Shown: piece by piece, positions 61,100 through 64,000 of the stretch
Position numbering within the stretch: the first letter of the stretch is position 1
Layout: every line of letters begins with the position of its first letter
From: Nitrosarchaeum sp.
GTDB lineage: Archaea; Thermoproteota; Nitrososphaeria; Nitrososphaerales; Nitrosopumilaceae
Direction of reading: 5' to 3'
DNA length: 64,000 nt
NCBI GenBank assembly: GCA_965223865.1
Contig: OZ245020.1
Coordinates: 1,921,366 to 1,985,365 of the forward strand
Position numbers and translations under genes: made by a program
The notes under the pieces: generated by a model
Seen by the model: the letters and a program-made list of their open reading frames with translations, nothing else
The model's database searches: none
What the model was told of the DNA's origin: nothing

Positions 61100-61160
61100 T
61101 TTGTTCATACAAATCATCAGTGATTTGTATTGATGACAGAATTATTAAAAAAATAATTTG

Positions 61161-61245
61161 AAAGGATGGGCCAAAGTGGCCTGCCCATCCATGGAAAGTT
61201 ATGGTCGGTTAAACGGTTAGATGACTCCTACTCGCGTTGAATTCC
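61161..61245 (-). ncRNA. Candidate about 85-nt small RNA ending in GC-rich hairpin (GGAUGGGC...GCCCAUCC) plus U-run
   Basis: GC-rich island in AT-rich intergenic DNA, promoter 21 nt upstream, no start codon at the predicted 5' end. Confidence 0.5.
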
Positions 61246-61265
61246 AAATTAATTATTACAAAGTC

Positions 61266-61287
61266 TACTTAAAAGGCAAACGTATGA
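61266..61287 (-). promoter_or_regulatory. BRE/TATA promoter copy B (cgtttgccTTTTAAGTA)
   Basis: Duplicate of 61078-61099. Confidence 0.6.
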
Positions 61288-61338
61288 ATCATCAGTATGA
61301 TCTAAATACTATTCGTGCAATATTGTAAATAATCTTCA

Positions 61339-61388
61339 TTGGATCTGTCACCAAGATACTGCCGGTGGTTTTTGGTCTTAAGATCCAA
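61339..61388 (+). ncRNA. Solo copy of CUGUC-[hairpin]-CUUAAG structured motif
   Basis: TTGGATCT-GTC-ACCAAGA...TTTTGGT-CTTA-AGATCCAA: perfect 8-bp lower stem and the same internal loop as the triplet at 63.7-63.9 kb. Confidence 0.6.
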
Positions 61389-61719
61389 CATTTAATTTTA
61401 ATTTCAAAAGATTGACTCGATTGATAAAGAGAACCAAATTAGATAATTTTTGACAAAACAATAACGAATTTTCAATAAAATCAAATATGTAACATTCCAA
61501 AGTCTTGGATTTTGTTGATAGAATCAAGCGCACCGTGTACTCATTGCATGATAGAGCATGCTTCTGGAGTAAGTTGTTCATGTCCATGTCATGATTATGG
61601 AGAATAGAGCAAATGATCGGATTGTGTAGCAGATGTTTTTCCTCTGGAGTGTCACTGATTCTATCTGAAGAAACCTTTGAGGCATTGTGTGACAAGTGTA
61701 GAAACTCTAAAGATTGATT

Positions 61720-63003
61720 CTAACTTAGCATTGATTCTATAACAGATTCAAAGACTGGATAAGGCTGAGGTCCCTGAATGGATTTGGTTTGACCTCCAGG
61801 TCCCACAATGATAAATGATGGAGTGGCTTTGACTCCATTATTGATACCTTCTTCTAGATTAAAGACAACTGCCTCACCATATTTTCCTGAATCAATACAA
61901 CTTGCAAATGCATCTTGGTCTAATCCTAAAACTTCAGCATAGTTTTGAAGACTAGATGTATTTGCCCATCCACTGTCAATTCCTCTCTGGTTGGAGTAAA
62001 GATATGAGTGATATTCCCAATAAACTCCTTGTTCTTCGGCGCAGTAAGTAGCAGCAGCGGCTGGAAGAGAATTATCGCCTAAAAATGCAAGATCGACAAA
62101 ATAGAGATTAGCCTTTCCTGTATCTATGTAATTTGTTACAATGTCTGGTTTTGTATTGAGAAACCACTCTTTACATTTTGGACATTGATAATCCCCAAAC
62201 TCTATTATTGTAATTTGTGCATCTTCAGAACCAAGTATTGGAGATGCTTGCGACAAGTTAACACCACCCAAGTTAAGTTGTACTTCAGTGGTTTGAGTAG
62301 ATACTGAAATTATTCCGTTTTGCACCAAAAACTCTATTCCTTTTAGAAAATCATCATCAGAAATTAGTCCCTGACTCCACCAGTCAGCATTATTCTTAAT
62401 CCATCCTGGAATTTCATTACTTTTTGATTCTAAGGATGCATCAGAGGAAACTGAGATTATTTTCTCTTTAATTAGAAATTGAATTCCAGAAACAAAGGTA
62501 CTATCATCAATATCACCATTTGCCCACCAACCTGCATTATTTTTAATCCATGTTGGAACTTTCCCTGTAGAATCATCTTTAATTTCTGAAGGTTGTTGGC
62601 CAATTATCACATCAAATGAAACTGTCTCTTGGGGAATTGGCATAAACAATATTCCTTCAATCTCTAGTGTTATTTTGTTAGTTCCACCCTCAAGTGTTAC
62701 TGGAATGGTAACAGAACCAGGACTGGTATGTGTCAGTGGAATAGGTCCAAATATTGAATTTCCATTATTTTCTATTTTTATGGTATAATCAATGTGTTCT
62801 TGAGTTTTGTTAGTTTGAGGATTGATAAATTCAATTTTGAGCTTTGTCTCTTCTCCTGGTTGTGGATCATCTAAATCTAATTTAACATCAAGAGTTCCAT
62901 CACTTGAGGTATTTGTCTGAGTTTCAGCAAATGTGTCGGGAATTATATTGATAGAAATTACTGTAAATAAAATAATTGCAAAGATTGGAATTAGGGTTTT
63001 CAT
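61720..63003 (-). CDS. Secreted DsbA/thioredoxin-fold protein with two PxWIKNNAxWW domains
   Basis: EFGDYQCPKC active site, GVKATPSF cis-Pro loop, signal peptide. Confidence 0.88.
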   Translation of the reverse strand: MKTLIPIFAIILFTVISINIIPDTFAETQTNTSSDGTLDVKLDLDDPQPGEETKLKIEFINPQTNKTQEHIDYTIKIENNGNSIFGPIPLTHTSPGSVTIPVTLEGGTNKITLEIEGILFMPIPQETVSFDVIIGQQPSEIKDDSTGKVPTWIKNNAGWWANGDIDDSTFVSGIQFLIKEKIISVSSDASLESKSNEIPGWIKNNADWWSQGLISDDDFLKGIEFLVQNGIISVSTQTTEVQLNLGGVNLSQASPILGSEDAQITIIEFGDYQCPKCKEWFLNTKPDIVTNYIDTGKANLYFVDLAFLGDNSLPAAAATYCAEEQGVYWEYHSYLYSNQRGIDSGWANTSSLQNYAEVLGLDQDAFASCIDSGKYGEAVVFNLEEGINNGVKATPSFIIVGPGGQTKSIQGPQPYPVFESVIESMLS

Positions 63004-63083
63004 ATTATACAACAAAATACAACTAGTTTAAACACTTTTTTCTAATTTTGAAGTATTGAGATATTTTTTTCTTTAATTGCTAT

Positions 63084-63686
63084 TCAGAAATTATTCTCAA
63101 AAACTAGTTCAGATAAGGGTAATTGTCCCCCTCTAGGAGAGGCTTGTTTTGTTGCTTTTCCGACCACAACCATCATTGCAATCACATGATCGCCAGGTAG
63201 TTTGATCAATTTACCTACTTTCTCATAATCAAAGCCCTTCATGGGGCATGTATCATATCCCATAGATTTTGCTGCAAGCATTATTGTTTGGGCAGCCATG
63301 CCACAAGACCTCATTGCCTCATCTCTTTGCTGTTGGGGTTTTTCACGGTAAGAATTTTTCAGAGAATCAACTAGAGCATTTCGAGGTTCTTTGGGAATAT
63401 TTTTCCAATATCGTTGAGGGTCTTTATTCCATGAATTCAGATCAGCACATAGTATTATCACTAATGATGCCTCTGATACTTGTTTTTGACCATGAGATAG
63501 TTCAGATAGTTTGTCTTTTAATTCCTGATTTGTAACAATTACAAAACGCCAATTTTGAATGTTGTATGAGGTAGGAGACAGAATGGCAGATTCCAAAATT
63601 TGTGTAATTTCATTTTTTGTAATTTTGTGATTAATATCAAAGCTTTTGATCGATCGTCTTTTCTTTATTGCATCAAAGGTATTCAT
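63084..63686 (-). CDS. Nitroreductase family protein
   Basis: RRSIK, SPTSYNIQNW, GYDTCPM.GFD. Confidence 0.92.
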   Translation of the reverse strand: MNTFDAIKKRRSIKSFDINHKITKNEITQILESAILSPTSYNIQNWRFVIVTNQELKDKLSELSHGQKQVSEASLVIILCADLNSWNKDPQRYWKNIPKEPRNALVDSLKNSYREKPQQQRDEAMRSCGMAAQTIMLAAKSMGYDTCPMKGFDYEKVGKLIKLPGDHVIAMMVVVGKATKQASPRGGQLPLSELVFENNF

Positions 63687-63726
63687 GACTTGGTTTTAAT
63701 AATCTCTAAATTTAATTCAATAAAAG

Positions 63727-63867
63727 AAAAGAGTTGAGCTTAAGACCAACTACCAAAAGGTATGTTGATGACAGCTCGTTTGCTTAAGGTCAGCAATGGT
63801 GATTACTGACGACAGCGTTTGTCTTAAGATCTCCAGCGTCGGCACGGAGATGACAGACCAACCTTTT
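63727..63867 (-). ncRNA. Tandem triplet of CUGUC-[variable hairpin]-CUUAAG structured units (unknown family)
   Basis: Three 40-44-nt units with invariant flanks and unrelated but pairing stems; TATA-like CTTAAAGTA at about 63904-63912 upstream and T-rich tract downstream on - strand. Confidence 0.7.
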
Positions 63868-64000
63868 CAATTAATTTATGAGAATTCGATAGTTAACTAG
63901 GACTACTTTAAGATACTAGTGCCAAATTTGGAATTATTTAACACTATAGTGATTTTCAGATAGTGTATTTATTAGGCCAAAATTGTCTCTTTGCTAAATG

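Follow-up and report, generated by a model that had tools for sequence, protein, structure and literature searches.

Bacterial decoy RNAs dock several copies of one protein, and CsrB, RsmY and RsmZ are decoys of this type in which several copies of the same recognition element are carried on separate hairpins. Ammonia-oxidising archaea, which occur in large numbers in the ocean and play a key part in the nitrogen cycle, are reported to be light-sensitive, and to our knowledge few regulatory RNAs have been described in them. Within a 64,000-nucleotide stretch of Nitrosarchaeum sp. DNA (the window) we characterized a locus of three tandem hairpins that resembles CsrB, RsmY and RsmZ in having one repeated element per hairpin, single copies of the element elsewhere in the genome and a regulated promoter. 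Unlike the GGA hairpin loop of the bacterial RNAs, the element is an inner loop, GUC/CUUA; the three-arm RNA also differs in its predicted fold, in which exactly three arms radiate from a closed four-way junction, and in its archaeal host, and we know of no CsrA-like partner for it. Archaeal H/ACA guide RNAs, which carry one, two or three hairpins, are likewise comparable in having one- and three-hairpin members, with an inner loop between the lower and upper stem of each hairpin. They differ in presenting a variable guide pocket where a small invariant loop is found here, and the hairpins of this locus have no G-A kink-turn or K-loop, no consistent ACA and no Rfam H/ACA match near threshold.

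A three-arm hairpin locus and its family

Reading of the sequence placed the three tandem hairpins on the minus strand of window positions 63736-63859, the whole feature extending over 63722-63867. The arms, in the order in which they would be transcribed, are:

63821-63859, minus strand: hairpin arm 1, lower stem GGUCU/AGAC, loop GUC/CUUA; both partners of its upper-stem pairs vary in the 8-genome alignment
63782-63816, minus strand: hairpin arm 2, lower stem GCU/AGC, loop GUC/CUUA
63736-63777, minus strand: hairpin arm 3, lower stem GAGCU/AGCUC, loop GUC/CUUA; matched by the single-hairpin model at E 8e-13

The inner loop is the same in all three, U[GUC]R facing Y[CUUA]A, and is asymmetric (3 x 4 nt). 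Every lower stem closes with a U-A pair, after which three bases (GUC) stand opposite four (CUUA) before the upper stem begins, and both upper and lower stems differ in sequence among the arms. The minus strand was predicted to fold at -53.9 kcal/mol (z -6.0), a value equalled by none of 200 shuffles, and the plus strand at -46.4 kcal/mol (z -3.7). An earlier, sequence-only reading of this DNA had proposed three tandem hairpins with an invariant GUC/CUUA loop and covarying stems, a description confirmed by the sequence itself, by folding and by comparison between genomes. In the window the pattern CTGTC-N12-40-CTTAAG was observed four times against an expectation of 0.63, and none of 100 shuffles reached four; the fourth match, at 61345-61382 on the plus strand, is a single hairpin and accounts for that reading having spoken of four copies. 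Genome-wide the bare CTGTC-gap-CTTAAG pattern gave 15 matches compared with 36 for the backwards-read control and so was not enriched. Eleven of the 15 form hairpins and constitute one family, and it is this hairpin structure, not the bare pattern words, that excludes a chance origin.

A single-hairpin covariance model was built from eleven copies of this genome. Searching the same genome returned 12 sites, ten of them at E ~1e-9 or below (9.3e-10 to 8.5e-15), and besides the three arms there are eight single-hairpin relatives. Among 41 relatives the model found sites in 12, all belonging to one family, and none in the 16 genomes searched from other families of the order. In a wider sample the hairpin family was present in 68 of 151 genomes and in 14 of the 27 genera of the family, so that scanning with a covariance model, an approach proposed along with the first description, did recover homologues with a conserved loop in this genome and its relatives. 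Relatives carry 1-11 hairpin copies and this genome 11-12.

Across 47 distinct single-arm copies, 93.4% of cells were paired compared with 77.4% after shuffling (0/500 shuffles reached the observed value), although these figures overstate independence because the copies are kin that share descent and their alignment was fitted to the model. Controls in which the partner strand was slid gave only 29-48% pairing, and compensatory change was observed at 13 of the 15 pairs. Given the slid controls and the many pair types, the hairpin structure is convincing despite this kinship. The same 47 copies contain 69 G-U pairs on the strand originally proposed and 16 on its complement, and that strand is the more stable in 37 of the 47. 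This asymmetry, taken with the stability, indicates that the folded molecule is a single strand of this polarity, and the minus-strand assignment that had been made from a few G-U wobbles is thereby borne out. The truly fixed part of the loop is U[NUC]R opposite Y[CUUA]A, its first base being mostly G, with C or U in some genera.

The triple array itself occupies the equivalent position in six further genomes, of which one belongs to a different genus, and the intergenic alignment of the seven shows variable stems, constant loops and conserved blocks on both sides. An 8-genome alignment of the whole RNA, in which 18 of 35 pairs are compensatory, was used to build a full-length model; this detected the full-length RNA at >60 bits in 20 of the 151 sampled genomes, representing 6 genera, with one copy per genome. 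These data indicate that the three-arm RNA is very probably one conserved small RNA gene of marine ammonia-oxidising archaea, belonging to a family confined to this clade.

Comparison with described RNAs yielded no counterpart. No Rfam 15 family matched anywhere in the window at gathering thresholds, and an E-value scan of 62000-64000 (E up to 10 allowed) gave six weak matches (E 0.75-7.5), all far below threshold and none on the hairpins, with both hairpin regions likewise yielding nothing at threshold; an Rfam search had been suggested as a check on novelty, and no family reaches threshold there. A full-text literature search, some queries of which were loosely framed, found no description of the RNA. 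With neither an Rfam family nor a paper found by that search, we regard this as a new RNA family. Transcription start sites of thaumarchaea are reported in supplementary tables that might bear on expression in marine relatives (PMC5069720).

Particular classes were considered individually. ARAGORN identified no tRNA or tmRNA in 15 hairpin loci, and an origin from tRNA ends or integration sites was therefore dropped for these loci. H/ACA guides were rejected on the invariant 3 x 4 loop of the 47 copies, the absence of tandem G-A pairs and the differing sequences that follow the three hairpins. C/D box and kink-turn RNAs were rejected since the hairpins contain neither a C (RUGAUGA) nor a D (CUGA) box; the snoRNA-type Rfam matches lie outside the hairpins only and score 13-22 bits against cut-offs of 36-75. 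The ARAGORN result, the box search and the invariance of the loop thus agree with the earlier view that the array is not a tRNA, C/D or H/ACA RNA. Integron attC sites would have conserved R boxes, arrays with gene cassettes between the sites and an IntI integrase close by; no cassettes lie between the three hairpins and no integrase domain was found in 75 neighbouring proteins. Presumed likenesses to a kink-turn, bulge-helix-bulge, sarcin-ricin motif, tetraloop receptor, T-loop and anticodon loop (CUGUCAC, UCUUAA) were also considered and none is claimed. For a uS8 site or a UAA/GAN loop the plus strand would have to be the folded one and to have a 3 x 3 UAA/GAN loop; the plus strand here offers UAAG opposite GAC (4 x 3). 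A uS8-like reading of that strand, raised earlier as a weaker alternative, is disfavoured also by the wobbles, the stability and the promoter direction, all of which point to the minus strand.

Promoter, closing helix and neighbouring genes

The sequences on either side of the arms are conserved and comprise the following features:

63916-63921, minus strand: distal box CACTAG, 19 nt upstream of the TATA box
63897-63902, minus strand: proximal box TCCTAG, abutting the TATA box and separated from the distal box by 13 nt, the spacing of the protein-coding promoter members
63889-63896, minus strand: TATA box, TTAACTAT here and TTAAATAT in relatives, conserved in the 7-genome alignment and in 20 genomes
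63862-63868, minus strand: 5' strand of the closing helix P1, GAAAAGG, pairing with 63726-63731 in the minimum-energy fold; predicted transcript start at ~63867
63722-63731, minus strand: 3' strand of P1, CUUUUC, continuing as a U-tract; the 3' end is predicted here, with a T-rich run after arm 3 in 7/7 aligned genomes
63708-63715, minus strand: TATA box of the nitroreductase gene, TTAAATTT, conserved and 21 nt before the ATG; a neighbour lying outside the RNA
63084-63686, minus strand: nitroreductase gene, 200 aa, Pfam Nitroreductase 7e-37

The conserved upstream TATA box is TTAACTAT (63889-63896), rather than ATAAATTA, which lies closer to the hairpins. It is kept in all 20 genomes with the full RNA, and in 19 of these CACTAG precedes it by exactly 19 nt (perfect in 15, one base changed in 4). 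In three-arm promoters a second CTAG-type box abuts the TATA. Under the search pattern used, this two-box layout was found at only nine sites in the 2-Mb genome, one of which is the three-arm promoter, and defines a promoter class consisting of a distal CACTAG, 13 nt, a proximal nnCTAG abutting the TATA and a first transcribed base ~21 nt after it; the promoter at 63889-63921 belongs to this class. Seven of the nine sites have an ORF start ~21-24 nt after the TATA and are leaderless units, with the ATG 21 nt after the TATA in two members counted by eye. The base 22 nt after the three-arm TATA is the first A of P1 (63867). Coincidence of the TATA spacing with the first P1 base makes a start at ~63867 well predicted from spacing, and 63867 is also where the earlier reading had ended its feature. 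Transcription, its start and its end are predicted here from likeness to promoters and terminators, in an AT-rich genome in which such boxes are common. Members of the CACTAG set in this genome are alike in box sequence, in the 13 nt between boxes, in the 19 nt from distal box to TATA and in the 21 nt from TATA to first transcribed base; they differ in that the other members found head leaderless protein genes whereas the three-arm member heads a non-coding RNA.

The seven leaderless sites lie in two islands encoding DNA photolyase, universal stress proteins (Usp) and B12-binding proteins, which also contain TFB paralogues, PNPOx-like proteins and an amine-oxidase-type flavoprotein. A CarH-like B12-binding protein, the candidate regulator, is full-length in 13 of the 20 RNA-carrying genomes and present in several genera that have no RNA. 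It does not co-track with the RNA and was rejected as a strict partner. The other seven genomes have no full-length homologue, one of them (G058) retaining a fragment that contains a stop codon. Changes in the distal box were seen in 4 of these 7 compared with 1 of the 13 with the full-length protein (one-sided Fisher p ~0.03), an association that is only a hint because three of the four altered genomes belong to one genus. The link of the three-arm RNA to a light regulon is weak.

The bases immediately before arm 1 and after arm 3 are complementary and would close the structure. Here and in close kin this helix pairs GAAAAGG with CCUUUUC, and in genera g43, g37 and part of g13 it has been rewritten with different sequences that keep the complementarity. 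Folding each of the 20 full-length copies individually recovered P1 in the minimum-energy structure of 14 by a strict count and of three more by eye. A processed array of small hairpin RNAs, one of the proposals of the sequence-only reading, is neither favoured nor contradicted by these data as a whole, but the covariation of P1 speaks for joint action of the three arms within a single folded RNA. In the predicted fold this RNA is a four-way junction of P1 and three arms, ~145-160 nt long with both ends paired. Archaeal termination needs oligo-T, not hairpins; on the basis of this known role of oligo-T, termination is predicted at the U-tract (63722-63731), where we infer the 3' end to lie. 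Neither the closing helix nor the CACTAG promoter class had been mentioned in the sequence-only reading, and nor had the single-hairpin relatives with promoters of their own.

In 14 of 21 loci a nitroreductase gene follows the RNA ~50 nt downstream on the same strand, with the U-rich tract between them, an arrangement that raises the question of whether the hairpins form a cis-acting leader or attenuator of this gene, in which transcription from the CACTAG promoter would stop at the U-tract or read through depending on a factor or ligand bound at the loops. Some single hairpins also lie upstream of same-strand genes, the distance being +174 and +195 for a GSDH-type dehydrogenase in two species and +2 to +106 for other genes. 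Against a leader, the nitroreductase has its own conserved TATA at leaderless spacing and the U-tract, which is half of P1 and separates the RNA from that TATA, pairs with the 5' end as it would in a finished RNA. Furthermore, no nitroreductase follows in genera g37 and g43 or in one g13 genome, the next gene converges on the RNA in four genomes, and most single hairpins have no same-strand gene downstream. We consider a leader function quite unlikely. Both the U-rich tract beyond the hairpins and the separate nitroreductase TATA had been noticed before and were found to be real. The nitroreductase TATA together with the converging next gene in four genomes indicates a stand-alone RNA, and the comparative evidence for its own promoter and U-tract upholds the stand-alone transcript that had been suggested. 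On the other side, a divergent 337-aa flavoprotein gene precedes the RNA in 14 of 21 loci, and the nitroreductase and flavoprotein arrangement is again not followed in g37, g43 and one g13 genome. In the present assembly window position 64000 is the end of contig C1, 79 nt past the distal promoter box, and the flavoprotein gene of relatives is missing because the contig end cuts the locus.

Tandem structured units followed by a terminator-like tract and then a protein gene are also the layout of ToxI arrays, the RNA antitoxins of type III toxin-antitoxin pairs, and by this analogy the protein encoded downstream would be the toxin. ToxI units are near-identical, whereas the three units here are alike only in the loop and its closing pairs and share one junction closed by P1. 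The downstream protein is moreover an ordinary nitroreductase-family flavoprotein (Nitroreductase 7e-37) that is dispensable, being missing in 7 of 21 loci, and the probability of a type III array is negligible.

Single-hairpin relatives

The single-hairpin relative within the window is associated with a promoter-like block of its own:

61280-61309, plus strand: promoter-like block belonging to the single hairpin, with the TATA CTAAATAC at its end; conserved across genera
61339-61388, plus strand: single-hairpin relative, lower stem UUGGAUCU/AGAUCCAA, same loop; model E 1.3e-14

An ortholog of this hairpin in genome G004 lies at the same distance from the three-arm gene of that genome. A CTAAATAC-type block precedes most single hairpins, such a box being present <=45 nt upstream in 48 of 68, and the g13-type promoter of the three-arm gene is plainly related to this block. 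Runs of T5 or longer within 25 nt downstream were found for 27 of the 68 single hairpins compared with 11 of 68 on the other strand (genome background 0.107).

Approximately 18 of 35 single hairpins, representing nine or more different contexts, directly adjoin or overlap the 3' end of an opposite-strand gene, the stop codon being 1-46 nt from the hairpin or overlapped by it. One possible reading is that the hairpins serve the converging genes as 3'-end structures, terminators or antisense RNAs, with the three-arm locus as an unusual special case. On the strand of the converging genes, however, the G-U pairs are lost (16 compared with 69) and no U-tract follows, and the three-arm RNA lies between divergent genes, so that as a general account of the family this is very improbable. 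A cis-antisense role for the one-arm RNAs fits with the explanation we prefer, that of a stand-alone structured RNA with recognition loops. The tail-to-tail location suggests that one-arm RNAs may also act as antisense transcripts, and we offer no other explanation for it; a decoy model by itself leaves the bias towards opposite-strand 3' ends unexplained. Among the converging genes are small AbrB-like ORFs, one that encodes an SRPBCC protein and one of 126 aa that precedes a blue copper protein, and a Pfam search of 75 flanking proteins revealed no common function among the neighbours of the hairpins.

Some of the small ORFs form a recognizable group. ORFs of 63-69 aa (MK..KLQHR.YLGKD...) end inside the hairpin complement at G000:C1 744980-745017 and 1884118-1884155 and at the relatives L040 and L050, so that the tails of the mRNA and the hairpin RNA would overlap. 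From their sequence they look like AbrB/SpoVT-type proteins, without a Pfam match, and the paralogous cassettes in which they are found also encode proteins of 560-690 aa and 52-77 aa.

Dispersed intergenic copies that form hairpins, have conserved unpaired bases and show a strand bias could equally be REP- or MITE-like DNA hairpins, in which case they would be single-stranded sites for a transposase or recombinase and the copies relics of mobility. Several copies do lie in variable cassettes with paralogous neighbours, and one genome has a near-identical tandem pair. REP/REPIN elements with their RAYT transposases share with this family short imperfect palindromes in intergenic positions near gene ends, sometimes clustered. 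The present family differs from them in its very low copy number (1-11 per genome in relatives), in loci kept at orthologous positions across genera with compensatory changes, in the dedicated promoter at a fixed distance and, at the three-arm locus, in a helix that spans 140 nt. Searching the 99.98% complete genome for the Y1 transposase of IS200/RAYT (PF01797) gave no match, whereas 6 of 14 control genomes responded, and with only 11-12 copies present a REP/RAYT system, for which a Y1 gene and tens to hundreds of copies would be expected, was rejected. The 75 neighbouring proteins contain no transposase or integrase domain either. We give mobile DNA hairpins very little probability, and the suggestion of single-stranded DNA sites for an HUH enzyme, which formed part of the sequence-only reading, is likewise disfavoured by the missing Y1 gene, the absence of such domains nearby and the persistence of the loci across genera.

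Proposed role and further observations

We think it probable that the locus encodes a stand-alone structured RNA whose loops are putative recognition sites. Within this explanation the RNA gene itself is held with considerable confidence, while titration of a protein specifically is a tentative suggestion made by analogy. Of the roles proposed in the sequence-only reading, a multivalent protein-binding or sponge RNA is still our best guess. The gene would be ~145 nt long and read on the minus strand from ~63867 to ~63722 under the control of the two-box CACTAG/TATA promoter, and the one-arm members would be short hairpin RNAs of ~55-65 nt, each with its own, related promoter. Since the promoter type is shared with photolyase, B12-binding and spare-TFB neighbourhoods, the RNA is probably made together with that set, and induction might perhaps be by light or oxidative stress. 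The invariant loop would be the docking site for a protein, of which the three-arm RNA could hold or titrate up to three copies and the one-arm RNAs would present single sites; we infer such a partner from three like loops on a junction, single-loop relatives and a dedicated promoter, which by analogy are what would be expected if one protein docked on the RNA in several copies. A more far-reaching version, which we consider rather unlikely, would make this the first archaeal multivalent decoy RNA, switched by stress or light, its loops capturing a nuclease or RNA-binding regulator whose targets would otherwise be the single-hairpin transcripts, many of them antisense to the ends of neighbouring genes, and so forming a post-transcriptional layer of photoprotection in ammonia-oxidising archaea. 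The RNA is directly testable, the family being compact and strongly covarying, with ends that are predicted and an invariant loop open to mutation, and the promoter shared with photolyase- and B12-linked genes provides a way into the light or oxidative-stress response. Repetition of one loop three times around a four-way junction suggests a module for RNA-protein recognition without earlier description.

Several further elements were observed among the single hairpins and near them. Hairpin L026 (G000:C1:1899475-1899569, minus strand) is a member with a ~40-nt apical insertion, a CUC/CUUA loop and changed closing pairs (E 5e-6). In G068 (genus g40) two near-identical hairpins, L086 and L121, stand in tandem behind one CACTAG-type TATA; the pair looks like a recent duplication and a route to multi-arm forms. 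Between the window hairpin and the end of a DsbA-like gene, positions 61512-61717 (plus strand) contain two cysteine-rich ORFs of 31 and 34 aa, which may be small metal-binding or redox peptides, or chance ORFs. A GC-rich structured element, here called RNA X, occurs at window positions 61150-61260 (plus strand) and also on the minus strand at G000:C1 about 745103-745217 and 1886341-1886455; in several genera it precedes many of the single hairpins by ~100 nt. A search of Rfam gave no match to it. It has a GGGCC-AAAGU-GCCC-type hairpin with a conserved AUGACUCC stretch behind it, its own promoter-like block has inverted AATGATT/AATCAT repeats, and it is probably another undescribed RNA gene.
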